From Candidatus Micrarchaeia archaeon (lineage in GTDB: Archaea; Micrarchaeota; Micrarchaeia; Anstonellales; J096): 12,974 nt of DNA. The stretch is from contig JBGQMB010000025.1 in assembly GCA_041500405.1 (NCBI GenBank), forward strand, positions 1-12,974, read 5' to 3'. How positions within the stretch are numbered: the first letter of the stretch is position 1; every line of letters starts with the position of its first letter. Shown here piece by piece: positions 1 to 12,894 of this stretch. Made by a program: the position numbers and the translations under genes. The notes under the pieces were generated by a model. It saw nothing but the letters and a program-made list of their open reading frames with translations, was not told the DNA's origin and searched no databases.

Positions 1-784
1 CAACCGGAGCCGCCGTCGGCGCCATATTTGCCATCGCTGTCGGTTGCACTGTAATGGGATTTGCCGGAAGGGGTTGCGCCGCCGGCTTCTGCGCCTGCCT
101 TTCCGCCAGCTTCCGCAGGCTGTCTTCGGCAAAGATGGCTTTCCACACGTTGAGCGGGGCCTCCGCGTTTGTTGCTGGGGCTTTTGTTTCAGTAGGCACG
201 TCGTCCTCGCCCCAGAGGTTGCCCCACGGGTTGTTTTTGTCGAAAACCCTTCTTGCCGCAGGGGGCTTGCTAGCCTTTTTCTGCTCGTTTAACAAAGCCA
301 TATATTTGCGCTCATATCTTTTGACAAGCTTCTCGGTTTCCGCGTCATCGGCGCTTATGCTGCGCTTGGCTTTCCTCAGGCTTTCTTTGGGCGCTTCCAC
401 CTTGATTGCAATCTTTGCTGGCACGGGCGTCGGGCCTGCCGTGTCCTTTTCTGCAACAGCAACAGGGGCCGGCTTTTCAGCAGGCACAGGCTTTGCGGCC
501 GGCGCCGGAAGATAGATTATCCTTACGGCCGGCTCTGACGGGGGCTTGAAAATTTCCATCTGCCTGGCCTTGTTCTGCACCCAGTTTGACCACGGGCCGG
601 CCATGCGCCAGCCTATTGTCCCGCAGATGGCAGTTGCGCCGCAGACGGCGCCGATAAGCATAGCCCTTTTCATTGCGGTTTTCCAGGGCTTCTCTGCCTC
701 GTCCCTGGCCCTTTTCATTGCCTTGACTATTCTCTTGTAATCGGCAGAATGAAGCTCCCCGGGATATACTATTCTCTGAGCCAT
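1..784 (-). CDS. Hypothetical membrane-anchored Pro/Ala/Lys-rich protein with the array-type leader; 3' end lies outside the window
   Basis: Absent from the ORF track because it has no stop in the window. Manual translation from ATG 784 is open to the edge: MAQRIVYPGELHSADYKRIVKAMKRARDEAEKPWKTAMKRAMLIGAVCGATAICGTIGWRMAGPW...PAPAAKPVPAEKPAPVAVAEK.... It has a hydrophobic segment near residues 41-60 and a TTTAAAAA box ending 23 nt upstream. Confidence 0.85.
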   Translation of the reverse strand, partial: MAQRIVYPGELHSADYKRIVKAMKRARDEAEKPWKTAMKRAMLIGAVCGATAICGTIGWRMAGPWSNWVQNKARQMEIFKPPSEPAVRIIYLPAPAAKPVPAEKPAPVAVAEKDTAGPTPVPAKIAIKVEAPKESLRKAKRSISADDAETEKLVKRYERKYMALLNEQKKASKPPAARRVFDKNNPWGNLWGEDDVPTETKAPATNAEAPLNVWKAIFAEDSLRKLAERQAQKPAAQPLPANPITVQPTAMANMAPTAAPV

Positions 785-806
785 ACCATTATTTTGGGGC
801 GTACTG

Positions 807-838
807 TTTTTAAACATTCATGTTCATTAAAAAACACA
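807..838 (-). promoter_or_regulatory. Bipartite archaeal-type promoter (TGTG element + TATA box) for the gene starting at 784
   Basis: Minus strand reads TGTGTTTTTTAATGAACATGAATG-TTTAAAAA, ending 23 nt from the ATG. The same architecture occurs at five other sites. Confidence 0.7.
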
Positions 839-859
839 TTAAAATAAGCTGTTTTCCGG

Positions 860-1159
860 CTATTTCCCGACGGCTCCCCGCCCGCCGACGCTTGCGCGGA
901 ACTCCTTATCCGAATCTATCATATAATTTACCCAGGCGTCGTGCATCCTTTTTAGGTTTACTTTCTTGAACTGCCCTGTGCCTGCCAAAACGCCTGCAAG
1001 GACTCCAATTGCCGCAAGCCCGATAACAAGCCTTTTGTTTCTCCTAGCAAAGCCGGTTCTTTCAGATTCGTCTTTTGCCTTCCTCAATATCATGCCGATG
1101 TGCGTTCCGCAATTTCTGCAATTGCCTGGCTTGAGCATAAGGGGCTTTTCAAGCGACAT
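860..1159 (-). CDS. Small (99 aa) leader-only membrane protein, paralogous to the N-terminus of the 5481-6521 ankyrin protein
   Basis: Start reassigned from 1249 to ATG 1159, 4 nt after the upstream stop (GAGTGATATCATG). MSLEKP...GMILRKAKDESERTGFARR...AAIGVLAGVLAG...KKVNLKR aligns with MPIEKP...GMVLRKAKDAIEKTGFAKR...ATIGMLAAFIAG...KDVNLKK. No ankyrin repeats follow. Confidence 0.8.
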   Translation of the reverse strand: MSLEKPLMLKPGNCRNCGTHIGMILRKAKDESERTGFARRNKRLVIGLAAIGVLAGVLAGTGQFKKVNLKRMHDAWVNYMIDSDKEFRASVGGRGAVGK

Positions 1160-1163
1160 GATA

Positions 1164-2765
1164 TCACTCTTTGGCGCCATGCTCTTTAAGGAATTTCGCG
1201 ATTTTTGTATTGTTATAATACTTGGCGTAATAAAGGGCCGTTTTGCCATCTTTATCTCTCGCGTTCACGTCCGCAGGACCCATCCCAAGCACCACCCTGG
1301 CAATCTCCAAATTGTCGCTCTGAACGGCAAAAATCAGGATAGTTGAGCCATCATTATTCTTAGCTTTCACGTCCGCGCCATGTTCAATCAGGAATTTGCA
1401 GGTTTGCATGTGTCTGTTCTCTGCGGCCCACATGAGCGCGGTCCTGCCCTCCTTGTCCTTTGCCTCTATGTCTGCGCCTTTCTCTAGCAGGAAAGCGCAG
1501 GTTTCGGTGCATCCGTTCTCTGCGGCAATCATGAGCGCGGTCATGCCGTAGTAGTCGTCCTTAGCTTCGATGTTTGCTCCTTTTTTGATTAGGAAAGCGC
1601 AAGTTTCAGTGCGGCCTGCAAATGCGGCCTCCATCAGCGCAGTCCAGCCCCAGCCGTTTTTTGCCTCTATGTCTGCGCCTTTTTTGATTAGGAAAGCGCA
1701 GGTTTGCATGTGTCTGTTCTCTGCGGCCCACATGAGCGCGGTCCTGCCGTTCTTGTCCCTTGCATCCATATCCGCGCCTTTATTAACCAGTAGCTTGCAG
1801 GTCTCTAAGTTTCCTATAGATGCAGCCTCCATCAGCGCAGTCATGCCCCAGTCATTCTTTGCCTCAATGTCTGCACCTTTCTCAAGCAAGAATTTGCAGA
1901 TGTCGGTGTATCCGTTCTCTGCGGCCCACATGAGCGCGGTCCTGCCGTCGTAGTCCTTAGCTTCGATGTTTGCGCCTTTTTCAAGCAGTAATGCACATGT
2001 TTGGGTGTGTCCTGCCAGTGCAGCACGTATGAGCGCAGTCCATCCGTAGTAATTATCCTTTGCCTCAATGTCTGCGCCTTTTTTGATTAGGAATGCGCAG
2101 GTTTGAGTGTGTCCGTTATATGCGGCCGACATGAGCGCAGTCCATCCGTAGTTGTCCTTTACCTCGATGTCCGCGCCCTTTTCAAGCAATAAAGCGCAGG
2201 TTTCGGTGCATCCATTCTCTGCGGCCCACCTCAGCGCAGTCTCGCCGAAGATATTCGTTGCCTTGACGTTTGCGCCTTTTTCAATCAGTAATTCGCAGGT
2301 TTGGGCATTTCCCTTCTGTGCGGCCGACATGAGCGCAGTCCATCCGTAGTTGTCCTTTGCATCAATGAGCTCCTTTACGTTTCCGCCCGCCTTTGCATAT
2401 TCTTGTATTATCAGGATGCAGATTTGGGTATTTCCATTCCGTGCGGCCTCCATGAGCGCCGTCCGGCCCAATGTGTTCTTTACCTTGATGTCTGCGCGTC
2501 TTTCAGGCAGTAATTCGCAGGTTTGGGCATTTCCCTTCTGTGCGGCAACAATGGGCGCGGATGCGCTTTCCTGCGAGTAGGCCATCATGTTGGGAGAAAC
2601 AACCGCCAGGCTTGCCGCCATTACGGTTATCGCGGTTTTTGAGCGGAAGAACTTGCACGCCCTTTCAATGCCGTCTTTTGCCTTCCTCAGAACCATGCTT
2701 ATAGGCTTTGCGCTGTCCCTTACGCCGGTTGCAACCCTTGTTCCAAACGTCTTTTCAATTGGCAT
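1164..2765 (-). CDS. Ankyrin-repeat protein (about 13 full + 1 partial repeats) with N-terminal signal/membrane segment
   Basis: Repeated 33-34 aa G-x-TALM-x-AA-xx-G-xxx-TC-xx-L-xx-KGA[DN] units, ending FLKEHGAKE. Start 2765 (MPIEK) is preferred by homology with the gene starting at 6521; ATG 2774 is an alternative. Confidence 0.95.
   Translation of the reverse strand: MPIEKTFGTRVATGVRDSAKPISMVLRKAKDGIERACKFFRSKTAITVMAASLAVVSPNMMAYSQESASAPIVAAQKGNAQTCELLPERRADIKVKNTLGRTALMEAARNGNTQICILIIQEYAKAGGNVKELIDAKDNYGWTALMSAAQKGNAQTCELLIEKGANVKATNIFGETALRWAAENGCTETCALLLEKGADIEVKDNYGWTALMSAAYNGHTQTCAFLIKKGADIEAKDNYYGWTALIRAALAGHTQTCALLLEKGANIEAKDYDGRTALMWAAENGYTDICKFLLEKGADIEAKNDWGMTALMEAASIGNLETCKLLVNKGADMDARDKNGRTALMWAAENRHMQTCAFLIKKGADIEAKNGWGWTALMEAAFAGRTETCAFLIKKGANIEAKDDYYGMTALMIAAENGCTETCAFLLEKGADIEAKDKEGRTALMWAAENRHMQTCKFLIEHGADVKAKNNDGSTILIFAVQSDNLEIARVVLGMGPADVNARDKDGKTALYYAKYYNNTKIAKFLKEHGAKE
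1398..1748. repeat. 51-bp exact direct repeat (1398-1448 and 1698-1748) inside the ankyrin gene
   Basis: gcaggtttgcatgtgtctgttctctgcggcccacatgagcgcggtcctgcc occurs twice, offset by 300 bp, and encodes GRTALMWAAENRHMQTC. Confidence 0.9.
2121..2546. repeat. Two exact direct repeat pairs inside the ankyrin gene: 2121-2160/2319-2358 (40 bp) and 2286-2324/2508-2546 (39 bp)
   Basis: Read directly from the sequence. The pairs encode KDNYGWTALMSAA and AAQKGNAQTCELL respectively. Confidence 0.88.
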
Positions 2766-2770
2766 TTTTA

Positions 2771-4759
2771 TCATTCCTTGGCGCCCTTGGATTTCAGGAA
2801 TTTAATAATGCTCCGTTTGCCGGCCAGGCTGAGCGCCGTATGGCCATCATTATCCTCCGCATTCACATCAGCATATCCTTTAACAAGAAGCCTGACAATC
2901 TCCTCCGCGTCTTCACCGCAGGCATACATAAGCGCCGTAATGCCGCTGCTGTCCCTTACATTTATGTTGACTTTATTGGAAAAAAGGCGGTCTACTGGGC
3001 TCTTTGATGTATCGATTGTTCCAAGAAGGAGTTTTGCTACTCTTAGCCCCCCATTACGAATTGCATGCATCAGCGCCGTTTTGCCATCCTTGTCTATCGC
3101 ATTAATATCCGCGCCCTTTTCTATGAAACGTTTGGCATCGGCTACGCGGTCTTTGGAAGCGGCGATCATCAGCACAGTAATGCCATCTTTATCTTTTGCA
3201 TTCACATCAGCGCCTTTGTCAATAAGCATATCCACGATATTATCATAATTGCCATAATTTGCGCCCGGAGTGGGCATTACATATTCCACAATCCTATACA
3301 TGCACGCATACATCAGCACCGTAATACCATCATTGTCCATTGCGCGCACGTCTGCATTTCTGTCAAGAAGAATCTTGGCAATGCCGGCCTGGCCGTCATG
3401 GCAGGCATACATCAGCGCAGTCTTCAAGTCCTTGTTTTTGGCGTTTACATAAGTGGCTTTCCTGTCAATAAGCAGCCTGGCGATGCTCTCGTGCCGTTTA
3501 GCAATGGCCAGCATCAGCGCCGTCATGCCTTTCTTGTCTTTTGCGTTGAGGTCGGCGCCCTTGTCAATGATGAGTTTGACAAGTTCTGCATCTCCTCTCT
3601 TCACGGCCCATAGGAGCGGCGTCACGCCATTAGTGTCCTTCACATTAACATTGGCGCCTTTTTCAATAAGGAACTTGACCAGTCTGTCGTTATCATTTTT
3701 CATCGCCAGCGAAAGCGGAGTCCAACCGTCCTTGTCCTTCACGTTCACCTTAGCGCCATATTTACCTACTAGTACTTTTGAAAGAATATCCTGTTCTTTA
3801 TTCTTAGAATGTTCAACTGCGTACATGAGCGCCGTCCTGCCGTGATTGTCCCTTAGATTCGCCTTAAGCTGCATGTCAGACCATATCATTGTCAAAGCAG
3901 ATAGATTGTTCCCACTTATCAGGGCATTCATCAGCGTCGTGCGCTTGTCGTCGCCATATTTTATGTTTACATCTGCGCCTTTCTGTATAAGCATACGTAT
4001 AGCATCAAAATTCTCTCCGCATACGGCATAGTCGAGCGCCGTCCTGCCATCCTTGTCTCTTGCATTGAGGTTAGCCCCTTTATCAGCAATCAGCTTGACA
4101 AGGGAAGAATCGCCTTTCTTTACGGCCCACATGAGCGGCGTCCTGCCTTTGCTGGATTTTATATTCACTTTCGCGCCTGCATCAAGAAGGAGCCTGACGA
4201 TTTCAACATTTTTTTGGCCAGCAGCAAACAACAGCGCCGTCCTGCCGCTGCTGTCTTTCTCATTAACATTGGCATGGTTGCCGATAAGCATCCTGACAAT
4301 GTCTGCATTCTCGTGAATTACGGCATACGTCAGCGCCGTAAATCCTTCTTTGTCCTTCGCATTCACATCAGCTCCTTTGTATATCAGGAGCTTGGCTTGA
4401 TCATCCTGTTCACACCAGATCGCACAGCTCAGCGGCGTCCAGCTGTTTCCTTTCCCAGCATCTATGTTTGCGCCGCCTTCTATTAGAGACCTGGTCCTTC
4501 CCAGGTCGCTTTTTCCTACGCTTTCAAAAAGCAGGCTATCCTGCGTGCTGAGCTTTTGCGAAGACGAGTCCTTGTGAGAACAGGACATTATGCCCAAAGC
4601 ACCCGCGGCAAGACCCGCCGCCAGCATGGTTATCGCGGTTCTTGAGCGGAAAAACCTGCGCGTGCTTTCCATGCCTTCTTTTGCCCTTCTGAAAATTTCA
4701 ACGAGCCTTCTGCGGCCGCCACTATCTTCCCTTGGAACATCCAGGCTTTTCAGCGCCAT
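2771..4759 (-). CDS. Ankyrin-repeat protein (about 16 repeats plus N-cap), predicted lipoprotein
   Basis: Repeated G-x-T[AP]L...GA[DN]VN[AV]KD units. The leader MALKSL...FRRAKEG...STRRFFRS is followed by hydrophobic TAITMLAAGLAAGALG and lipobox-like IMS-C. Ends FLKSKGAKE. Confidence 0.95.
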   Translation of the reverse strand: MALKSLDVPREDSGGRRRLVEIFRRAKEGMESTRRFFRSRTAITMLAAGLAAGALGIMSCSHKDSSSQKLSTQDSLLFESVGKSDLGRTRSLIEGGANIDAGKGNSWTPLSCAIWCEQDDQAKLLIYKGADVNAKDKEGFTALTYAVIHENADIVRMLIGNHANVNEKDSSGRTALLFAAGQKNVEIVRLLLDAGAKVNIKSSKGRTPLMWAVKKGDSSLVKLIADKGANLNARDKDGRTALDYAVCGENFDAIRMLIQKGADVNIKYGDDKRTTLMNALISGNNLSALTMIWSDMQLKANLRDNHGRTALMYAVEHSKNKEQDILSKVLVGKYGAKVNVKDKDGWTPLSLAMKNDNDRLVKFLIEKGANVNVKDTNGVTPLLWAVKRGDAELVKLIIDKGADLNAKDKKGMTALMLAIAKRHESIARLLIDRKATYVNAKNKDLKTALMYACHDGQAGIAKILLDRNADVRAMDNDGITVLMYACMYRIVEYVMPTPGANYGNYDNIVDMLIDKGADVNAKDKDGITVLMIAASKDRVADAKRFIEKGADINAIDKDGKTALMHAIRNGGLRVAKLLLGTIDTSKSPVDRLFSNKVNINVRDSSGITALMYACGEDAEEIVRLLVKGYADVNAEDNDGHTALSLAGKRSIIKFLKSKGAKE

Positions 4760-4781
4760 GCCATATTTCCTGCAGGAACAG

Positions 4782-4814
4782 TTTTTAAACCATTATTACT
4801 CATTTAAAAACACA
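4782..4814 (-). promoter_or_regulatory. Bipartite promoter for the 4759-2765-1159 operon
   Basis: Minus strand reads TGTGTTTTTAAATGAGTAATAATGG-TTTAAAAA, ending 23 nt from ATG 4759. Confidence 0.7.
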
Positions 4815-4833
4815 AAAAGCTGTCTATGGCGTT

Positions 4834-5409
4834 TCACTCCTTTGCGCCTGCGGCTTTCAGGAGCTTGACGATGCCGGTTTTTCCGTAAATCATCTCGCCC
4901 AATTCGGCATAATGCAGGACGGCCCTGCCGTTCCTGTCCTTTGCGTTCACGTCCGCGCCGTTGTCAATAAGCAGCCTTGCGATTTCGATGTTGCCTGCCT
5001 TCGCCGCGTCCATGAGCGGGGTTATGCCAGTTGCCTCGTCCCTTGCATTGGGGTCTGCGCCCTTTTCTAGCAGCGATTCAACGTCCGCACAGGTGCCGTT
5101 TTGGGCATGGAAGATGATGTCGTCCGCATATTTTTCCGCATTCGTAGCCTTATAGTTTAGTGGGGCTGCGCTTTTGCCTGCAACAGCGGCCTGCGCTGCA
5201 TTTGGCTTTCCCATCGGGCCCCATACAAATGCCTGCATCGGCACAACTATGCATAATCCAACAATAGCACCTGTAATTAAACCTGTTTTAGTTAGCTTAT
5301 TCCATTCCTGATCATCTGTTATGTTCTTCGCAGCCCTGAATATCATGTTCTTTGGCTTTGTCCTTCCGCCGTTGAGGCTTTTTTTCTGCTTTTCAGATAG
5401 CATAACCAT
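4834..5409 (-). CDS. Short membrane-anchored ankyrin-repeat protein (cap + 2 repeats)
   Basis: LLEKGADPNARD...GITPLMDAAKAGNIEIARLLIDNGADVNAKD. Hydrophobic segment GLITGAIVGLCIVVPMQAFVW. Ends LLKAAGAKE. ATG 5403 fits the promoter spacing better than 5409. Confidence 0.92.
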   Translation of the reverse strand: MVMLSEKQKKSLNGGRTKPKNMIFRAAKNITDDQEWNKLTKTGLITGAIVGLCIVVPMQAFVWGPMGKPNAAQAAVAGKSAAPLNYKATNAEKYADDIIFHAQNGTCADVESLLEKGADPNARDEATGITPLMDAAKAGNIEIARLLIDNGADVNAKDRNGRAVLHYAELGEMIYGKTGIVKLLKAAGAKE

Positions 5410-5426
5410 ATCTTAGTCCCCAACAC

Positions 5427-5458
5427 CTTTTAAACATATCATCTCGCCAATAACCACA
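5427..5458 (-). promoter_or_regulatory. Bipartite promoter for the 4834-5409 gene
   Basis: Minus strand reads TGTGGTTATTGGCGAGATGATATG-TTTAAAAG. TGTG begins exactly 24 nt before the TATA box. Confidence 0.6.
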
Positions 5459-5480
5459 GTGGCTCCGTCTGTGCGGCATC

Positions 5481-6521
5481 TCATTCCTTTGCGCCGAGAG
5501 ACTCAAGGTACTCGATTGCAGCAGGAAGCCCAAACCTTTTGGCATAGCCAAGCGCAGTCATGCCTTCTTTGTCCCTTTTGCTTATGTAATTTTTAACGTC
5601 TCCGCCGGCTTTTTCGTACTTGGACACTAGAAACTCGCAGAATTCTGCAAGCCCAAGTTGTGCCGCATACATGAGCACAGTCATGCCGTATTTGTCCGCT
5701 GCCTCGATGTATCTTTTCAGGTTTCCGCCAGCCTTGGCATATGCGGAGATGAGCGCCTTGTATTCGCTGGTATCGCGGCTGCAAGCCGCATGCATGAGCG
5801 CAGTCTTTCCGTCCTTGTCCGCTGCCTCGATGAGCCCCTTAACATTCCCGCCCTTCTTCGCGTATCTTTCAATGAACAGCGCCCACGTCTTTTCATGGTG
5901 ACCCAGCACAGCTGCCCACATGAGCACAGTCAGGCCGTCATTGTCCCTTGCATTGATTTTTGCCCTTTTTTCAATCAAGAACTTGCAGACGTCATAGCTC
6001 CCGACCCATGCGGCCCTCATGAGCGCAGTCTCGCCATAACCGCCGGTTGCAGTAGCATTCACGTCCGCGCCCTTGCCTACCAGCAGCTTGACAGCTTCGA
6101 CGCTTCCGCCGGCTGCGGCGCATATGAGCGCTGTCCAGCCGTGCTCGTTCCTTGCGTTCGGGTCCGCGCCCTGCCTCAGGAGATTTTCAACGCTCGCGAC
6201 TGTCACGTAGTCCGAGACTGCATCCAAAAGCGCCTTGTTCATGCGCTGCTGTTTTTCGGAGATTTTGGATTTCTTTTCAACGGCGCTTATTTGTTTGGCG
6301 TTTGCCTTTTTCAGATTGACATCCTTTAGGTTTTCGGCGCCTGCAATGAACGCGGCAAGCATGCCTATTGTCGCAACCCTGGCGACGGCATGCCAGCTTC
6401 TTTTTGCAAAACCAGTTTTCTCGATTGCATCTTTTGCCTTCCTCAGAACCATGCCGACAGGCTTTCCGCTGCTGTTTTCGCCGGTTGCAATCTTTGACCC
6501 AAACGGTTTTTCGATTGGCAT
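5481..6521 (-). CDS. Ankyrin-repeat protein (cap + about 6 repeats, three of an extended type) with N-terminal signal/membrane segment
   Basis: GWTALICAA, GETALMRAA, GLTVLMWAA, GKTALMHAA, GMTVLMYAA and GMTALGYA motifs. Leader MPIEKP...LRKAKD. Ends YLESLGAKE. Confidence 0.95.
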   Translation of the reverse strand: MPIEKPFGSKIATGENSSGKPVGMVLRKAKDAIEKTGFAKRSWHAVARVATIGMLAAFIAGAENLKDVNLKKANAKQISAVEKKSKISEKQQRMNKALLDAVSDYVTVASVENLLRQGADPNARNEHGWTALICAAAGGSVEAVKLLVGKGADVNATATGGYGETALMRAAWVGSYDVCKFLIEKRAKINARDNDGLTVLMWAAVLGHHEKTWALFIERYAKKGGNVKGLIEAADKDGKTALMHAACSRDTSEYKALISAYAKAGGNLKRYIEAADKYGMTVLMYAAQLGLAEFCEFLVSKYEKAGGDVKNYISKRDKEGMTALGYAKRFGLPAAIEYLESLGAKE

Positions 6522-6525
6522 ATTA

Positions 6526-7617
6526 TCAGTTCTCTTGGCAGCATAACTTCAAAATCATTTCTCTCTGTTCATTACTGTACTTATTGGAAAACTTAACTTC
6601 CTCTTTTTTCAGAAAATAGTATGTCTTATCGTATCCTTTACTCAATTCAAGTGCAGTCGCGCCAAAATTACCCTCTACGTCTATATATTCTCCAATATTT
6701 CCGCCATACCTGGCAAGTTTTTCAAGCAGCAATTTGCAGATTTCTAAGTTATTTTGCTGAGCGGCATTCATTAATGCAGTCCGGCCACCATCTCCCCAAT
6801 CGTAACTAGTCTTTGCCTCAATGAACTTCCTAACATTTCCGCCATACTTAGCAAGCTTTTCAAGCAGGAATGCGCAGACTTCCGTGTCGCCGTAGGGGGC
6901 AGGCCGCTCGGCCATGCAACCAGGCATCGCTGCGGCATGCATAAGAGCATTCTCGCCATATTTATCCTTTGCTTCAATATATTTTTTTACATTTCCACCT
7001 TTTTCAGCAACTTTTTCAATCAGAACTCTACAGCAATTAATATCTCCTAGAGAATGCATGAGTACAGTGCGTCCAGTTGTATCCCTAGCATACATGTTTG
7101 CGCCATGCTCAATCAAGAATTCACAGGCTTTGGCATCACAAGACTCCATGGCAAGCATAAGCGCGGTGCTACCGTCGCTAGTCTTTGCATCAACCTTGGC
7201 GCCAAGCTTGATAAGGAGACTGCCAACGACGAGGTTTCCGTCCCATCCAATTACACTCTCCATCAATGGAGTCCAGCCCCGCTTGTTCCTGCAGTTCACA
7301 TCTACGCCATACAAAACAATTCCCCTGATTTTTTTCTTATCTCTTTTTTCAACAGCGTCAAAAAGCATGCTATCTACAGTGCTGATCGTGGCAACAGCGG
7401 GTGCTGGTGCTTCCCAGTGCGGTGTATTTTCCTTATGTGAACAGGATATCAGATTCGGCGAAACCACGGCCAAGCTGGTCGCAAGCATCGTCATTGCGGT
7501 TTTTGAGCGCAGGAACTTGCAAGTCCTTTCAATGCCGTCCTTTGCCCTTATGAAACAACCAAGGATACGTCTGTTACCATTTCTGCTTTCTTTTGACACC
7601 AGGCTTTTCAGTGCCAT
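6526..7617 (-). CDS. Ankyrin-repeat protein (cap + about 6 repeats), predicted lipoprotein
   Basis: GWTPLMES, GSTALMLA, GRTVLMHS, GENALMHAA and GRTALMNAA motifs. The leader MALKSL...FIRAKDG is followed by a hydrophobic segment and lipobox-like LIS-C. Confidence 0.93.
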   Translation of the reverse strand: MALKSLVSKESRNGNRRILGCFIRAKDGIERTCKFLRSKTAMTMLATSLAVVSPNLISCSHKENTPHWEAPAPAVATISTVDSMLFDAVEKRDKKKIRGIVLYGVDVNCRNKRGWTPLMESVIGWDGNLVVGSLLIKLGAKVDAKTSDGSTALMLAMESCDAKACEFLIEHGANMYARDTTGRTVLMHSLGDINCCRVLIEKVAEKGGNVKKYIEAKDKYGENALMHAAAMPGCMAERPAPYGDTEVCAFLLEKLAKYGGNVRKFIEAKTSYDWGDGGRTALMNAAQQNNLEICKLLLEKLARYGGNIGEYIDVEGNFGATALELSKGYDKTYYFLKKEEVKFSNKYSNEQREMILKLCCQEN

Positions 7618-7638: not shown

Positions 7639-7670
7639 CTTTTTAACATGCACGCTCGTTTATAAACACA
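7639..7670 (-). promoter_or_regulatory. Bipartite promoter for the 7617-6521 operon
   Basis: Minus strand reads TGTGTTTATAAACGAGCGTGCATG-TTAAAAAG, ending 22 nt from ATG 7617. Confidence 0.62.
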
Positions 7671-7725: not shown

Positions 7726-8217
7726 ATGGCCGACATAAGCCTTGAGATTGTCAAGCTTGCGCCTGCAAACGGGGAAAACATAATCCTGGGCCAGTCGCAC
7801 TTCATTAAAACGGTGGAGGACATTTACGAGGCCATAGTGGAGACCAACCCGGCAATAAAGTTCGGGGTCGCGTTCTGTGAAGCCAGCGCCGACCTTCTCA
7901 TAAGGCACGACGGCAACGACGACGCGATGGCGAAAAAGGCGATAGAAGCCGCAAGGAGAATCGGCGCAGGCCACTCGTTCGTGATATGGATGACAGGGGG
8001 CTGGCCGCTCAACATAATAAACAGGCTCATGGCGGTCTCAGAAGTCGTCAACATATTCGCGGCAACGTCAAACACGCTTGAAGTTATCGTAGCCGAAACG
8101 TCCCAGGGAAGAGGCATAATGGGCGTGATAGACGGCAACAAGCCGGTCGGCGTGGAGACCCCGGCAAAAGCAAAAGAGAGGAAGGCCCTGCTGAGGGGTC
8201 TGGGATACAAAAGGTGA
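7726..8217 (+). CDS. Adenosine-specific kinase family protein (PAE2307/COG1839-like)
   Basis: Family motifs NIILGQSHFIKTVEDIYEA, FGVAFCEAS, GAGHSF and GRGIMGVIDG, C-terminal GYKR, and the typical length of about 163 aa. Confidence 0.93.
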   Translation: MADISLEIVKLAPANGENIILGQSHFIKTVEDIYEAIVETNPAIKFGVAFCEASADLLIRHDGNDDAMAKKAIEAARRIGAGHSFVIWMTGGWPLNIINRLMAVSEVVNIFAATSNTLEVIVAETSQGRGIMGVIDGNKPVGVETPAKAKERKALLRGLGYKR

Positions 8218-8222
8218 AAAAG

Positions 8223-8555
8223 ATGATTTTCCAGATATACAAAGGGGAAGACGAGGAGCAGCAGCTTGAACAGAAAAAAGCGCCAGAGAAAAAGGCGGAA
8301 GAGGAAAAGAGCAGCAAGTTCAAGGACTTTTACGCAAGCAACAAGCTTGCGCTTGACGGCATGGTGAACGGCCTAAAGAGGGAAGACCCGAACATAACAA
8401 AGGCGTTCCTGAAAAAGGTCATAACGCTCATTTGGCTTTCCTCGGAAAGCGACCCAAAGGCGATTGAGGGAGTAAAAAGGCTTTTCAGCATAGCGACGGT
8501 GAAGAGCATAGCGAGCATGTTCGGGAAGCTGAAGCTCGCGCCGTCCAGGAAGTAG
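8223..8555 (+). CDS. Small hypothetical protein, probably co-transcribed with the kinase
   Basis: Open frame with a charged N-half and a helical-looking C-half. GGTGA (8213-8217, containing the kinase stop) precedes ATG 8223; GTG 8214 is an alternative start. Confidence 0.75.
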   Translation: MIFQIYKGEDEEQQLEQKKAPEKKAEEEKSSKFKDFYASNKLALDGMVNGLKREDPNITKAFLKKVITLIWLSSESDPKAIEGVKRLFSIATVKSIASMFGKLKLAPSRK

Positions 8556-8562
8556 GGCTTCG

Positions 8563-8961
8563 TCAGCCTGCTTCTTTGTTGCGGTGCGCCCTTAGGAATT
8601 CAGCAGTGCCATCGCGGCCTCCTGCTGTTGCAAGCATGAGCGCAGTCATGTCGTAGTTGTCAATTGCATTGACGTCAGCTTTGTGTTCAAAAAGAAGTTT
8701 GCACATTCCAGTATATCCAGTGTATGCGGCAAGCATGAGCGGGGTTCTTCCGTCGCTGTTCCTTATATTCACGTCCGCCCCGGCATCCAGCAGCCTTTTG
8801 GCGTTTTCAATTTTTCCCTTCTTGGCAAACTCAAGCAGCCTCATGTTCAGGCTCTCCAGCCTTTCTTTATCGGGCATTATGCCCTCAGTTTTCGGCTTGT
8901 TGGCAGCAATGCCGGGCTTTACTGTTGCTTTCCTGCATTTGGGCAGATTTCTTTCCTGCAT
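8563..8961 (-). CDS. Short ankyrin-repeat protein (cap + 2 repeats) with no hydrophobic signal
   Basis: LLDAGADVNIRNSDGRTPLMLAAYTG...ADVNAIDNYDMTALMLA. ATG 8961 is preferred over TTG 8985 because a TTTTAAAT box overlapping the thpR stop ends about 24 nt upstream of it. Confidence 0.9.
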   Translation of the reverse strand: MQERNLPKCRKATVKPGIAANKPKTEGIMPDKERLESLNMRLLEFAKKGKIENAKRLLDAGADVNIRNSDGRTPLMLAAYTGYTGMCKLLFEHKADVNAIDNYDMTALMLATAGGRDGTAEFLRAHRNKEAG

Positions 8962-8986
8962 ATGCCGTTTATGTGCAGGCAACAAT

Positions 8987-9496
8987 TTAAAAGCCGTATT
9001 TTTTGAGAAGTCTGTATTCCGGATTTGGCTTTTTCAGCACGCTTTCATACAGGCAGATGGAGTCGGGCCTGAAAGTCCCGAAGTCGGTTGCACAATATTT
9101 TTCAACAAACGATTTCGCATTGTCCGTTTTTCCCTGGATTCTGGCAACAGTCAGGTGCAATTTTGCCTCCCTGCCTTCCTCAATCCTGAACGCCTTTATC
9201 ATCACGTTGGCGTTCCTTTTCATCCCTGCCCCTTCAACGCCGACCCACGCTATTCTGACAAACTCGGGGTTCGGGAACACGCCCGCGCCTTTCAGCGTAA
9301 CGTCCCCTTTCTCAAACTTCAGGCCGGCCAGAACCTTTTCCGCGTCCTCCTGTTTCATTTCGCCAAGGAACGCAAGCGTAATGTGAAGGTTCTCGCGCGG
9401 AATAATCTTCACGTTCGGGCCCTCAAGCGACTTCGCCGCCTCGCACACCCTGTCCAAAATTCCGTCCGGAATGTCAACTGCGACGAAAAGCCTCAT
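8987..9496 (-). CDS. thpR: RNA 2',3'-cyclic phosphodiesterase (2H phosphoesterase, LigT/ThpR)
   Basis: Starts MRLFVAVDIP, has two HxT motifs (NLHITLAFLGE, LHLTVARI) and C-terminal LYESVL...PEY. Confidence 0.95.
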   Translation of the reverse strand: MRLFVAVDIPDGILDRVCEAAKSLEGPNVKIIPRENLHITLAFLGEMKQEDAEKVLAGLKFEKGDVTLKGAGVFPNPEFVRIAWVGVEGAGMKRNANVMIKAFRIEEGREAKLHLTVARIQGKTDNAKSFVEKYCATDFGTFRPDSICLYESVLKKPNPEYRLLKKYGF

Positions 9497-9517
9497 GGAT
9501 GGATGATGCAAGGAAAG

Positions 9518-9629: not shown

Positions 9630-11405
9630 ATGTTCAATGAAAGATTGATGCCCGTTTCAAAACTAAATCCAAGAATAAAGAGATGCTTATCCACACTGCA
9701 GATTTTGGACAGCGCGCCGCTCACCGAAGACACAGTGAAGGCCGCCTATAGGACATTGGCAATGAGATATCATCCTGACAAAAATCCCGGCAACACGGAT
9801 ATCGGGGCAAAATTCAGGGAAGCGACTGATGCATACCATGAAATGAAGAGATTATTTGAAAGCTCAGGCCAAGAAACAATCCAACTTGAAACAGAACCCA
9901 ACATAAAAAGCAGGGACTTGCTAAAAAAAGGATTTTCCTCTGCAGTGGAAAGGCTGTTGAGGGAAAAGGATGAAGCGGATAAAGGGAGGAAAGACGCATC
10001 CATCTATGAAATGCCAAGGGAATATGTGCAAAGGCCATTTTCAGATACGGTGCGTTTGCATATGCAGAAGATAGAAAGGATATTCCTTCTCGAACAGCCT
10101 GCATTGGACAAAAACCAGTCTGTTGACGAAATAGTAATATCCATATTCGGCGTAGAACCGGAAAGCCCTGTTGTTGCGCAAGCGCGCAAAGTTTTTGATG
10201 AAAGCCAAAAATCGAAAAAGGACTTCGTAGATGCGCTATCCCTGGCATACTGGATAACTGAGATGTTCGGGGGCGCGTCACCGCAAAAAGCGCTGGAAAG
10301 AACGGCAAAATTTCTTGAATGCGGCGATAAAGCCCAAATGAAAATGGCAGCGGGCTGCGCATTGGCCTCTCTGGATGCGGACTTGCATGTGATGATGGAA
10401 CCGAAAAAGGAAGGAAAGAGATATTCCATGGCATTTGATGAGCTGTACGGCCTGATTTTCCGCTCAATAAAAACCGACGGAGAAATGGACCAATACGGTT
10501 TATTGATGAAAGAGGCGCAAAAATGCGCCTTGCGTTCCCAAAGACCCCTGCTGTTCAGCGGCAAAAACCACGTCTATGCCGCCAAAATACTGACGAAAGC
10601 GTGCAGGAACAGGAGCATAAGCGAGGCAAGGCTGTTTCTTGACAAGGCCGTTTCCCTTTGCGAAAAGTTATTCTACGATCCTTTTGCAGATAACAGCCTT
10701 GACATGCTGGATGAAAAGATGGCCGCCATGGAAGCCGAAAGGCTGAATTTAGGGCGGACCAGGGGATTCACAGAGCAAGAATTCTTTGACTTGGTGAATC
10801 TTGTCGAAGCGATAAGAAACGACGGCAGCCTGAGTTTCAAGATGAGGCTTCTCACATTCTCCAAATTTATCAATTCATTAAGCGAAACCATACCGAAGGA
10901 TAAAATGTTATATGCAAATACCTTTGTGGATTCCGTCTCCGAAGCCGCCAACGGATATGTTGACGGAAATACGGCGCATATCGTAAATGAATGGAGCAGG
11001 GCATTCAAGAGCCATTTTGGCTCATTCATGCAAAATCCGGAGAGTTTTTGGAGGGCCATGAATGCGATAGGGTGCCTGAGAAAAAACATCGGTAAAAAGA
11101 ATCGCGGCTTCAGGAAACCTTTTTACGTTACCGTGGAGGCTGCCGCATATTGCGGGTCAAGGATAGTGGGCAAAAGCCCGGAAACAAGAAAGATTGAGGA
11201 ACTGCAAAGACTGTGCGACAATTACAGGAACAGCGAATACTTCGTAACCCAAACGAAAAAAGGCAGGCAGACAATCCCGGCAGAAAGCCTCACACCCAAA
11301 GAAAAAAGGATTTACATGGGATTACAAGATATACAGAGGGGCTCTTCAAGAAAAATCAAGACAGAACAAATGAAGGAAATCCTGGATGTTTTCTACGACG
11401 AATGA
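9630..11405 (+). CDS. J-domain (class C DnaJ-like) protein with a large uncharacterised C-terminal region
   Basis: N-terminal VKAAYRTLAMRYHPDKNPG...KFREATDAY with an intact HPD motif. It has no G/F-rich region or CxxCxGxG repeats, so it is not canonical DnaJ. Confidence 0.9.
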   Translation: MFNERLMPVSKLNPRIKRCLSTLQILDSAPLTEDTVKAAYRTLAMRYHPDKNPGNTDIGAKFREATDAYHEMKRLFESSGQETIQLETEPNIKSRDLLKKGFSSAVERLLREKDEADKGRKDASIYEMPREYVQRPFSDTVRLHMQKIERIFLLEQPALDKNQSVDEIVISIFGVEPESPVVAQARKVFDESQKSKKDFVDALSLAYWITEMFGGASPQKALERTAKFLECGDKAQMKMAAGCALASLDADLHVMMEPKKEGKRYSMAFDELYGLIFRSIKTDGEMDQYGLLMKEAQKCALRSQRPLLFSGKNHVYAAKILTKACRNRSISEARLFLDKAVSLCEKLFYDPFADNSLDMLDEKMAAMEAERLNLGRTRGFTEQEFFDLVNLVEAIRNDGSLSFKMRLLTFSKFINSLSETIPKDKMLYANTFVDSVSEAANGYVDGNTAHIVNEWSRAFKSHFGSFMQNPESFWRAMNAIGCLRKNIGKKNRGFRKPFYVTVEAAAYCGSRIVGKSPETRKIEELQRLCDNYRNSEYFVTQTKKGRQTIPAESLTPKEKRIYMGLQDIQRGSSRKIKTEQMKEILDVFYDE

Positions 11406-11409
11406 ATGG

Positions 11410-12870
11410 TCATTTCATTGAGGAAACCAGGTTTTCCAGCCTTTTTATCCCACCCTGCAGCATCAGTGCCAGTTTGGAGTCCAAATCCGCGGTATCCAGC
11501 CCCAATTGTGCCAGCATGCCCTTGGCCCTGGACAGAAGCAAAACCTGTTTTATGTCCTCCGGAGGGGATGTCACAATCAATCCCGTGTACGTTGCATGGT
11601 CTTCAAGCATTGTGGTCAGGCCAACGACAAATTGGCTTTCCCCCTTCGTTAAGGGAACAAGCGCTGTTGTGCCGGTGGTTTGGATATGCCCCAGCAGGTA
11701 TCTGCTTATTAGCTCCTTCAGCGGTCCGGATACGTCCTCACGGGCCAATTTCACGCGGGAAACGACTTCATCAATGTGCTCCAGGGCCTTTGTTGCAATC
11801 TCGTGCTCTTTCACAACATTATGCAGAATCCTTTTTTCCAGTGAAGCAAAATACCTCTTGCTTCTTGCGCGCAGCTCAATCACATTTGTCCTGTTCTCTC
11901 TGTCAAGCTCGACAAACCTGAAAGGCGCGCTCTTTGTGCGGTTCACAAAAGGTTCATAGCAAAGGTAAAACAGCCTGCTTTGCATCTCATTAAGCGTTAT
12001 CCTATCTCCTGGATTGTGTTTCTTGATCTCTGATATCATCTCCGCAATCTCGGGTATCTGGGCTTTGAACACACGGTCGCTGATAATGCTCTGGTGCGCA
12101 GGCTCGCAGCCTGCGGCAGATGACCCGAACCATTTTCTTAGGCGGGGATTGGATGAGACAAGCCTTGAATATCTGACCCATTTGTTGTTGTGATGAGCCG
12201 ATATGTACCTGCTTATCTGCTCAAAATAAAATGAATTGCTCTCGTTTGTCCTTTCAACCAAGGCATTGACGCTTTCCCCCGAGTATCTTTTCGAGATAGA
12301 AGCCAGAATGTCCCTGTGCATTTTTGAGTCATGGTTTGGCTCTTTCTGCAAAAGGCCGACGAACTGCTCCATTTCGGCACTGCGCAGCAGTCTGCCCGCA
12401 ATGTCAAGTATCGATTCCAGGAGGGCCGCCTTTATCTCAGAATGGTTTAGCCTGTCTGCCCCTTCGCCAAGCGTTTTCTGTATTTGGCTGGATTCCAAAT
12501 CCATGTAATGTAGGTACAAAACCGCAAATGGAACCACAGTGGGTGCAAGATTCATGTTTACAAAAATCATGTCGCCATATTTGTATCCTATGCCCGAACC
12601 GTCGCACTGGCTGTCCAGGAATGGTTTCGAACAGAAAACGTACTTTAGGTTCTCTCCGGCTATCTCTACGCTGAATTTATGGTTTTTTCTGTAATAATTT
12701 TCAATGTCGCTTAGCGGATCAAGACATAGTGTTTGGCATAGCGATAATGTCGGACCTCTGGTACCAGAGCCATCAGGGGCTATGATATCATTTGCCCTAA
12801 ATGCCCTTTTAGTATCAGGGCTAGGTTTTCCATTTGCATTTTTTGGCATGTCTCCTTTTTCAGTAGCCAT
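11410..12870 (-). CDS. Hypothetical protein (486 aa)
   Basis: Long ORF convergent with the J-domain gene (4 nt gap). ATG 12870 is preferred over TTG 12891 because the TATA box ends 25 nt upstream of it. No family recognised. Confidence 0.85.
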   Translation of the reverse strand: MATEKGDMPKNANGKPSPDTKRAFRANDIIAPDGSGTRGPTLSLCQTLCLDPLSDIENYYRKNHKFSVEIAGENLKYVFCSKPFLDSQCDGSGIGYKYGDMIFVNMNLAPTVVPFAVLYLHYMDLESSQIQKTLGEGADRLNHSEIKAALLESILDIAGRLLRSAEMEQFVGLLQKEPNHDSKMHRDILASISKRYSGESVNALVERTNESNSFYFEQISRYISAHHNNKWVRYSRLVSSNPRLRKWFGSSAAGCEPAHQSIISDRVFKAQIPEIAEMISEIKKHNPGDRITLNEMQSRLFYLCYEPFVNRTKSAPFRFVELDRENRTNVIELRARSKRYFASLEKRILHNVVKEHEIATKALEHIDEVVSRVKLAREDVSGPLKELISRYLLGHIQTTGTTALVPLTKGESQFVVGLTTMLEDHATYTGLIVTSPPEDIKQVLLLSRAKGMLAQLGLDTADLDSKLALMLQGGIKRLENLVSSMK

Positions 12871-12894
12871 ATACACTACCCTTGTACACAACGC

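Follow-up and report, generated by a model that had tools for sequence, protein, structure and literature searches.

A long basic leader with a conserved core on seven proteins of a micrarchaeal gene array: a probable genus-specific extension of a Sec-type signal

Why do seven neighboring genes with three types of cargo begin with the same kind of long, basic N-terminal leader, and what would such a leader do for the proteins that carry it? The question is raised by contig JBGQMB010000025.1 of a Candidatus Micrarchaeia archaeon (NCBI GenBank assembly GCA_041500405.1), a stretch of 12,974 nucleotides (nt) that was analyzed at its full length and is referred to here as the window. The window is an entire contig (C25) of its own genome, G000, whose assembly comprises 916,473 bases in 60 contigs and is 86% complete. 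That the genome is archaeal is also seen from ribosomal protein L24e, which it encodes and which, among the controls, was detected in the four archaea only. It contains an array of seven head-to-tail genes, g1 to g7, all on the minus strand, of which g3 to g7 encode ankyrin proteins (Pfam, best E about 1e-113). A first-pass annotation had noticed a motif near the N-terminus of all seven products and had suggested a targeting, chaperone-binding or processing element, possibly for an undescribed export or sorting route. As argued below, the leader is probably an extended signal peptide or signal anchor of the Sec/signal recognition particle (SRP) pathway that is specific to one genus and has spread by duplication and recombination; nothing found here supports a separate export route.

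In general, the leader is a module of about 60 residues. It starts with roughly 20 variable basic residues, probably disordered, which are followed by a basic helix, predicted to be amphipathic, that holds a 10-residue core, by about 10 variable basic linker residues and by a Sec-type hydrophobic segment. All seven leaders have some 40 basic residues at their start, with the core inside, and the hydrophobic segment starts at residue 41-45. The core extends beyond the motif first noticed. Its consensus is hydrophobic-hydrophobic-R-x-A-K-D-x-x-E, that is, two hydrophobic residues, Arg (Lys in g1, Ile in g7), any residue, Ala, Lys/Arg, Asp/Glu/Asn, any two residues and Glu/Asp. All seven motif strings quoted in the first-pass annotation are present in minus-strand open reading frames (ORFs). 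Its placement of the Ala at residue 25-29 also holds: from the starts that it used, the Ala is residue 26, 28, 29, 26, 27, 29 and 25 in g1 to g7, respectively (residue 25 in g5 when counted from the ATG at 5403), and the hydrophobic segment begins 14-16 residues further on.

The two genes at the distal end of the array are those without an ankyrin cargo. Neither g1 nor g2 matches a Pfam family, which bears out the statement that the motif is retained on non-ankyrin cargo. The first, g1 (2..784), is truncated at the contig end; its leader lies at 608-784, with the core AMKRARDEAE at 692-721 and the hydrophobic segment at 608-664, and a Pro/Ala-rich stretch follows this segment. A near-identical full-length relative, P0006, has 418 residues. 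The second, g2 (860..1159), encodes a mini-protein of 99 residues that consists of the leader (974-1159; core ILRKAKDESE at 1061-1090; hydrophobic segment at 974-1030) and a 37-residue tail. The ankyrin proteins differ widely in size. The products of g3 (1164..2765; leader 2580-2765; core VLRKAKDGIE at 2664-2693) and g4 (2771..4759; leader 4583-4759; core IFRRAKEGME at 4667-4696) have 533 and 662 residues. That of g5 (4834..5403; leader 5218-5403; core IFRAAKNITD at 5314-5343) has 189 residues from the ATG at 5403, or 191 from 5409, and a hydrophobic segment of 22 residues. The last two, g6 (5481..6521; leader 6336-6521; core VLRKAKDAIE at 6420-6449) and g7 (6526..7617; leader 7444-7617; core CFIRAKDGIE at 7528-7557), encode proteins of 346 and 363 residues. 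A Cys codon directly follows the leader in g4 (4580-4582) and g7 (7441-7443).

The first issue is whether these leaders are related or merely alike. A hidden Markov model (HMM) of the leader, searched against the 12,102 six-frame ORFs of the genome, matched seven, all of them in the array, at E <= 1.7e-19, with the next ORF at 0.054; an HMM of the pre-membrane part alone found the same seven array ORFs only. Because the leader profile matches exactly these seven ORFs in its own genome, the repetition of the motif is, by this measure, homology at a fixed register, and neither chance nor convergence. A strict regular expression for the core matched nine ORFs in the genome, including the seven of the array, and one to six in five shuffles, a comparison that is partly circular, as the expression was built from the array leaders themselves. 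Motif-like strings are also seen in a 108-residue ORF on contig C53 (1494-1862, minus strand; MLAMKKAKEG, with a membrane segment 18 residues on) and in a 309-residue ORF on contig C1 (31191-32117, minus strand; CIAKAKDCME), neither of which is significant (E 0.2-1.4).

Beyond the locus, the leader has a very narrow distribution. Its profile matched in 2 of 41 related genomes, namely, G000 and G001, which belongs to the same genus; the third genome of the genus (G002, 77% complete) gave no leader match. Across 401 genomes sampled from the whole phylum, matches at E <= 8e-19 were again limited to G000 (seven genes) and G001 (two genes). Eight further genomes gave weak partial matches (E 1.5e-4 to 9.8e-3), and the one of these that was inspected, G139, has no leader-like ORF. 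A search of 1.84 billion representative proteins returned 11 matches at E <= 1e-3. Two were internal matches in repeat proteins and were judged spurious; the nine credible ones are g5, g6, g7, two proteins of G001, two g1-type proteins (418 and 447 residues) and two g2-type proteins (95 and 100 residues), with g7 and g5 recognized by protein length. Nine is a lower bound, because leader-bearing ankyrin proteins can sit behind cluster representatives, as illustrated by g3 and g4, which are not among the matches. Named members of the family are annotated as hypothetical proteins throughout. Pattern-based locus searches in genome contigs and metagenome contigs found no encoded relative, word-index protein searches with the g6 leader, the whole of g2 and the g3 leader returned the query itself or nothing, and the ESM Atlas, queried with g2, gave a best score of 0.78 and no lead. 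As far as these searches reach, the leader appears confined to one genus. Thus, the HMM search that had been proposed does find members beyond the locus, in the form of the two G001 genes and the further g1- and g2-type proteins.

Described families do not account for the leader either. No match was found in Pfam (seven full proteins at E <= 0.01; four of the seven leaders alone at E <= 1) or in NCBIfam (six of the seven leaders at E <= 1), and the best match of the leader profile in PDB, at E = 0.13, is not credible; the possibility, raised at the outset, that the leader belongs to an already described signal family thus finds no support in these three databases. The literature consulted on ankyrin proteins in Micrarchaeota and DPANN and on extended archaeal signal peptides describes no such leader in the portions that were accessible. 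No significant relation to the N-termini of the other ankyrin proteins of the genome emerged: the pre-membrane leader profile compared with 34 other ankyrin N-termini by hhalign reached a probability of 2.1%, and the pre-membrane HMM found nothing significant among such N-termini. With a 20-column motif HMM, seven non-array ankyrin N-termini appeared at ranks 8-57, where about 1.3 were expected, at E 2.6-23. This enrichment, which may be explained by basic composition and in which no N-terminus is significant by itself, was rejected as evidence and counts as no more than a lead.

How one leader came to stand on several cargos can be read from the nucleotide sequences. Between paralogs, the leaders are the best-conserved parts at the DNA level, and this similarity is patchy. 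For instance, nt 1-92 of g3 are 82.6% identical to g6, while nt 84-182 are 78.8% identical to g7 and nt 84-152 are 84.1% identical to g4. The protein follows the same division, as the pre-motif part of g3 is 57% identical to that of g6 and 21% to that of g7, while the post-motif part is 68% identical to that of g7 and 15% to that of g6. By these identities, the g3 leader is a chimera of a g6-like 5' half and a g7/g4-like 3' half, with the switch inside the core. Apart from that of g1, the pre-motif segments of the array are of two types; the post-motif segments are also of two types, and the combination differs from gene to gene. On this pattern, duplication and recombination of a single module account for the sharing of the leader. 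The claim that the leader is independent of cargo consequently needs to be narrowed. It stands insofar as three cargo types carry the leader; nevertheless, ankyrin paralogs make up five of the seven cargos, and the residues right after the membrane segment of g6 resemble those of g2.

Comparison with G001 indicates when the array arose. At its locus L012, the gene order is LigT, a gene for a 113-residue protein, adenosine kinase and a g1 homologue, to be compared with 7726-9511 of the window. There, the g1 homologue directly adjoins the adenosine kinase gene and no array is present, and a single leader-bearing ankyrin gene is found on a different contig. Relative to G001, G000 has g2 to g7 inserted between g1 and the kinase gene, and an ankyrin gene (8563-8961 or to 8985) inserted between the gene for the 113-residue protein and LigT. 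The array is a species-level expansion, since G001 has the g1 homologue at the syntenic site without it.

The locus was also compared with contigs from four sediment-metagenome runs of other studies. These contain a near-unchanged locus, with long pieces that differ by 0-3 letters (e.g., 4235-6629 and 6410-7600), which supports the assembly across the leader junctions; they hold no usable polymorphism within leaders. In contigs of three sediment runs (X2, X3 and X4), 66 bases of the g2 linker and hydrophobic segment (986-1051) are swapped for a diverged stretch of equal length with identical flanks; this may reflect allelic variation or gene conversion from another leader. In the ankyrin repeats of g3 (1405-2288), joints in the contigs of other runs skip or repeat 91-866 bases, and the joint from 1405 to 2272 is seen in four of four runs; either repeat-number variation or assembly collapse of the repeats would produce them.

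Recent copying raises the question of whether the motif means anything at all. It could be that it has no specific role: the family would be young and would evolve fast, the leader would be no more than the N-terminus that its members inherited, and any stable positive helix ahead of the anchor would satisfy the positive-inside rule. The family has very few members and is confined to a single genus, and the 79-84% nucleotide identity of related leader halves points to recent copying. The parts that flank the core are also near-neutral: the pooled ratio of nonsynonymous to synonymous differences (pN/pS; uncorrected Nei-Gojobori counts from nine DNA sequences) is 0.88 in the pre-core part, 0.86 in the linker and 0.78 in the hydrophobic segment. 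In the core, by contrast, it is 0.46, and between g3 and g6 the core has pS 0.57 and pN 0.04, so that the absence of constraint that might have told against the motif was not observed. In 12 of 12 aligned sequences, the core Ala is unchanged and is followed by Lys or Arg. These residues are encoded by synonymous codons (Ala by GCA, GCC or GCG; Lys/Arg by AAA, AAG or AGG; Asp by GAC or GAT). From these counts, the core is the most constrained part of the leader, and the constraint is at the protein level. Moreover, the core is kept across two species and where the flanks are only 4-30% identical (e.g., between g1-type and g2-type proteins), and the Ala, the Lys/Arg, the Asp/Glu/Asn and the Glu/Asp at +5 are retained with synonymous changes, while a generic need for charge would not fix an Ala. 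An inherited N-terminus without a specific role is, thus, improbable.

The core is also predicted to be helical and amphipathic, as had been suggested. The hydrophobic moment of the 18 residues around it is 0.40-0.76, which is above the mean of the shuffled versions for each of the 12 sequences; taken singly, a fraction of 0.001 to 0.145 of the shuffles attains the moment observed. AlphaFold2 models the g2 family with residues 1-18 disordered and a single helix at 19-61. The N-terminus of the model for the g1 family agrees with this, while the rest of that model is unusable.

A further question is whether the leaders are as long as the ORFs suggest. TATA-like boxes on the minus strand precede four of the genes: tttaaaaa at 807..814, 30-23 nt upstream of the g1 ATG (784); tttaaaaa at 4782..4789, 30-23 nt upstream of the g4 ATG (4759); tttaaaa at 5428..5434, 31-25 nt upstream of the g5 ATG (5403); and ttaaaaa at 7640..7646, 29-23 nt upstream of the g7 ATG (7617). 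The box-to-ATG spacing of 29-31 nt is equal to that in 20 other ankyrin genes of the genome, which have in common a promoter-like region where a tttttaa box lies near positions -30 to -24 and ...cataataaagcc immediately precedes the ATG; the small ankyrin gene that starts at 8961 has its box at 8984-8991 (minus strand) with the same spacing. Such a region implies, as far as can be told from the sequence, leaderless or very short-leader mRNAs. In ORF calls, it appears upstream of ankyrin genes as a false 'FLTPLPHNK' extension. The remaining genes of the array, g2, g3 and g6, have no TATA-like box and start 4-9 nt past the preceding stop codon (g2 4 nt past that of g3, and g6 4 nt past that of g7). 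With boxes at g7, g5, g4 and g1 and stop-start coupling elsewhere, the likely transcription units are g7-g6, g5, g4-g3-g2 and g1.

Two starts were chosen on these grounds. For g1, an ATG at 817 was rejected, as it falls within the promoter and the box at -30 favors 784, the start used in the first-pass annotation; the resulting 'MFKNSTP' extension is promoter read as protein, and the same extension is found in the G001 homologue. For g5, 5403 is preferred to 5409 on promoter spacing. Over-extension of this kind invites the suspicion that all long leaders are artefacts and that the true start is a Met just before the core (as in M-V-L-R-K-A-K-D), which would leave an n-region of 20 residues. 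Indeed, a Met stands three residues before the core Arg in four of the seven (g2, g3, g5 and g6) and two before it in g1. Such an internal start cannot be general, because the Met is absent in g4 (Glu) and g7 (Gly), as well as in the aligned homologues from elsewhere (5/5) apart from G001a. In addition, TATA-box spacing favors the upstream ATGs in g1, g4, g5 and g7, while g2, g3 and g6 start right past a stop codon, and the very first residues are conserved at the protein level, with MPIEK shared by g3 and g6, MALKSL shared by g4 and g7, and M-x-x-E-K/R found in 6 of 12 sequences. Conserved box spacing and stop-start coupling, therefore, support the long start codons, and short leaders are hardly credible.

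What follows the basic part is an ordinary hydrophobic segment, which takes two forms. In g7, it ends in L-I-S-C and in g4 in I-M-S-C, with Ser/Thr/Gln-rich linkers next; g3 has a g7-like segment with Tyr in place of the lipobox Cys. In g1, g2, g5 and g6, it is an uncharged stretch of 19-22 residues without Cys, followed in g5, as in g1, by a Pro/Ala-rich spacer. Ahead of the segment there are 9-12 Lys/Arg residues. An N-out/C-in topology was rejected, since these would need to cross the membrane. SecY and SRP54 are encoded in the genome and are the only general export machinery found. With a net-positive flank, a segment of the length required of a Sec signal anchor and SecY and SRP54 present, g1, g2, g5 and g6 look like N-in/C-out anchors in sequence.

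Export of folded ankyrin domains by long twin-arginine translocation (Tat) signals must also be weighed. The Tat consensus is S/T-R-R-x-F-L-K, and g4 has S-T-R-R-F-F-R immediately ahead of its hydrophobic segment. Tat n-regions are often long, as here, and ankyrin repeats fold fast. In contrast, the Arg pair is not conserved in the leader family: g3 and g7 have C-K in its place (C-K-F-F/L-R), and g1 and g5 have no pair. No Tat-signal model matches the g4 leader at E <= 1, and TatC (PF00902) and TatA (PF02416) gave no match in the 86%-complete genome, in a search whose controls were positive in 11 of 14 reference genomes. With a twin arginine in g4 only and both components missing, Tat export is largely refuted and very improbable.

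More relevant to the original proposal is the notion that the leader directs its cargo into an export or sorting route not yet described, or that it is bound by a targeting factor or chaperone of its own. Such a role would fit a motif that is conserved in the same register across three types of cargo and matches no described signal family. Furthermore, it is established that archaea have neither SecA nor SecB, and Hsp70 (PF00012) was not found in the 86%-complete genome, so that the way in which a fast-folding ankyrin cargo is kept export-competent needs explaining. Nevertheless, SecY and SRP54 are all the general machinery that was found, no dedicated partner gene travels with the leader and no candidate machinery is linked to it in G000 or G001. 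In every member, the next element is a Sec-type hydrophobic segment. Nor does ankyrin cargo need the leader: another ankyrin protein of the genome (C37:110-610) starts with a lipoprotein signal of the canonical short kind, MKVAILVIALGLILLFGC, with a two-residue n-region and a lipobox, followed by a polar linker. As this signal is canonical, ankyrin domains outside the membrane would have a precedent in the same genome without a long leader. Finally, a family of nine proteins from a single genus is slender ground on which to propose a pathway. We therefore give little credence to a new route. The premise behind it, that n-regions of this length have no parallel, was also too strong, as long signal sequences whose N-terminal parts are conserved have been described in bacteria (PMC2805444 and PMC5962339); the former reports a common domain organization in 79 of 90 long signal sequences.

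Another alternative is that the basic helix is a permanent cytoplasmic tail for docking or oligomerization, with the leader and membrane helix joining the array proteins, among them the mini-protein of g2 and the stalk protein of g1, in one membrane complex or to a cytoplasmic partner. This idea draws on g2, which amounts to little more than a leader standing by itself with a short tail, and whose family shows conservation (66% and 52% identity to P0007). Moreover, two proteins from elsewhere, one g2-type and the other g1-type, are each listed with a longest contig of 8,107 bases and may, thus, be adjacent there as well, and the motif helix is predicted to be continuous with the membrane helix. 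By contrast, the mature g4 and g7 proteins would lose the tail if cleaved at the lipobox Cys, the g1 homologue of G001 has neither g2 nor an array beside it, and no candidate partner was found. On balance, a docking tail is unlikely.

The favored reading, an extended Sec/SRP signal, would work as follows. The Lys/Arg-rich N-terminus would be held in the cytoplasm and the cargo, whether an ankyrin domain, a Pro/Ala-rich stalk protein or a mini-protein, would be placed outside the membrane. The hydrophobic segment would act either as a lipoprotein-type signal with a lipobox-like Cys end (g7 and g4; degenerate in g3) or as a retained N-in/C-out anchor (g1, g2, g5 and g6). Tandem duplication, together with recombination within the leader, would have spread the module. 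For the helix, a role in biogenesis is most likely, because it is kept both on forms that would lose the leader by cleavage and on forms that would keep it; it may serve in orientation, in targeting or in the timing or site of insertion, as with the YSIRK and ESPR extensions of bacteria.

Several points weigh against this interpretation. Only g7 strictly fits the published lipobox, as g4 has Met at -2. The lipobox-like Cys is at residue 59-60, while in typical lipoprotein signals it comes much earlier. The g2 and g6 proteins are as basic just after the segment as before it, which leaves their orientation in more doubt. It is also uncommon for ankyrin repeats to be exposed at the cell surface. 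A crude survey counted 211 ORFs that have a hydrophobic segment at the N-terminus, and in 31 of them this segment starts 31-60 residues from the first Met; many of these are probably over-extended or multi-pass, and a single-pass protein with a 40-residue cytoplasmic tail is in itself not unusual. Besides, the constraint estimate comes from nine DNA sequences with non-independent pairs and saturated p-distances and, thus, gives a ranking rather than a rate, and both structure models are of low confidence (mean predicted local distance difference test scores of 57.2 for the g2 family and 41.3 for the g1 family).

Comparison with known systems places the leader more precisely. The best functional analogy is the YSIRK/GXXS signal of Gram-positive surface proteins (Pfam PF04650). 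Like the leader, it is a long Sec signal with a conserved n-region motif on many unrelated cargos. In contrast to the leader, its motif is a different one and is set at the edge of the hydrophobic region, while the leader core lies 14-16 residues upstream; no profile match and a core away from the n/h boundary place the leader outside this family. YSIRK signals are also bacterial and SecA-dependent, whereas the leader is archaeal and some of its members probably keep the segment as an anchor. According to PMC5962339 and PMC12004944, the YSIRK motif acts before or during translocation and sets the site of secretion. A similar part may be imagined for the helix, as a lineage-specific sorting or holding signal that is read by a cytoplasmic factor or by SRP/FtsY and either routes surface ankyrin proteins and a stalk protein to a particular membrane site (e.g., a host contact zone) or keeps fast-folding ankyrin cargo export-competent where SecA, SecB and, as far as found, Hsp70 are missing; this proposal is speculative, and we hold it to be rather improbable.

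A second likeness is to the ESPR of autotransporters and two-partner secretion proteins (extended signal peptide region; Pfam PF13018), which is also a conserved N-terminal extension before a normal Sec signal on large repetitive surface proteins. It is, however, proteobacterial and has its own hydrophobic sub-domain, whereas the leader extension is polar and basic throughout; the leader gave no profile match and has no hydrophobic stretch in its first 40 residues. With YSIRK and ESPR alike, the similarity would lie in layout and presumed mode of action, with no relation in sequence. Among archaeal signals, those of lipoproteins (AliA/AliB pathway) resemble the leaders of g7, which fits the lipobox, and g4, which nearly does, with a polar linker past the Cys. 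They differ in an n-region of a few residues as opposed to about 40, and the Cys is present in only two of the seven genes, plus the degenerate g3. The pattern used for this comparison, [L/V/I][A/S/T/V/I][G/A/S]C, and the report of archaeal lipoproteins and the enzyme AliA for DPANN are both from PMC12462473. The predicted anchors of g1, g2, g5 and g6 share with type II signal anchors of TonB-like layout a basic cytoplasmic N-tail and one helix of 19-22 residues, and g1 and g5 add a Pro/Ala-rich spacer ahead of the C-terminal domain; the likeness to TonB/TolA is in layout only, as no sequence relation was found. Lastly, a class III (pilin-like) signal does not fit an n-region of about 40 residues with 10 variable residues between the core and the hydrophobic segment.

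The rest of the window, upstream of the array and either on the other strand or farther along, contains an adenosine-specific kinase gene, a 113-residue ORF (8214-8555, plus strand) without a Pfam family that is kept beside the adenosine kinase gene in G001, and the small leaderless ankyrin gene (8563-8961 or to 8985, minus strand; 132-140 residues). These are accompanied by a LigT-type phosphoesterase gene, a gene for a J-domain protein of 591 residues (9630-11405, plus strand), with an N-terminal J domain (PF00226, E 1.7e-10) and no assignment for the rest of its body, and a 493-residue ORF (11410-12891, minus strand) without a Pfam family. Scans of the window for Rfam families and tRNAs returned none.

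Ankyrin proteins are abundant in this genome as a whole. About 59 six-frame ORFs of the 0.92-Mb assembly match the ankyrin region of g3 (e.g., C8:21614-25699, C9:4493-8117 and C2:26394-28350). Most ankyrin proteins of the genome have 150-240 residues and no membrane segment; their N-terminus, which is of a different type, is basic over about 45 residues (MQERK...KEPAPSEKP...). Among the matches listed, Ank_2 occurs 95, 113 and 93 times in the three genomes of the genus, 73 times in one other genus of the family and 0-19 times in other genomes of the same family; in the same order, two genomes have 42 and 25 and the rest 0-12. Undinarchaeota are described as lacking ankyrin proteins (PMC7414124).

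The genus, thus, has an unusual ankyrin expansion, and the array represents the few of these proteins that are predicted to reach the cell surface. This is of interest because small-genome symbiotic archaea need contact with host cells and their surface proteins are mostly unknown. In these genomes, such proteins may escape standard predictors designed for short n-regions and for a lipobox Cys within about 35 residues. If the helix has no role in targeting, the array would still be a clear, small example of a membrane-targeting module moved by duplication and recombination. If the helix does modulate targeting, it would mean that archaea too add lineage-specific extensions to Sec signals, and it would offer a handle on the export of fast-folding proteins without SecA. 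Should it further prove to be a sorting or holding signal, the leader would be the first archaeal counterpart of a YSIRK/ESPR-type extension.

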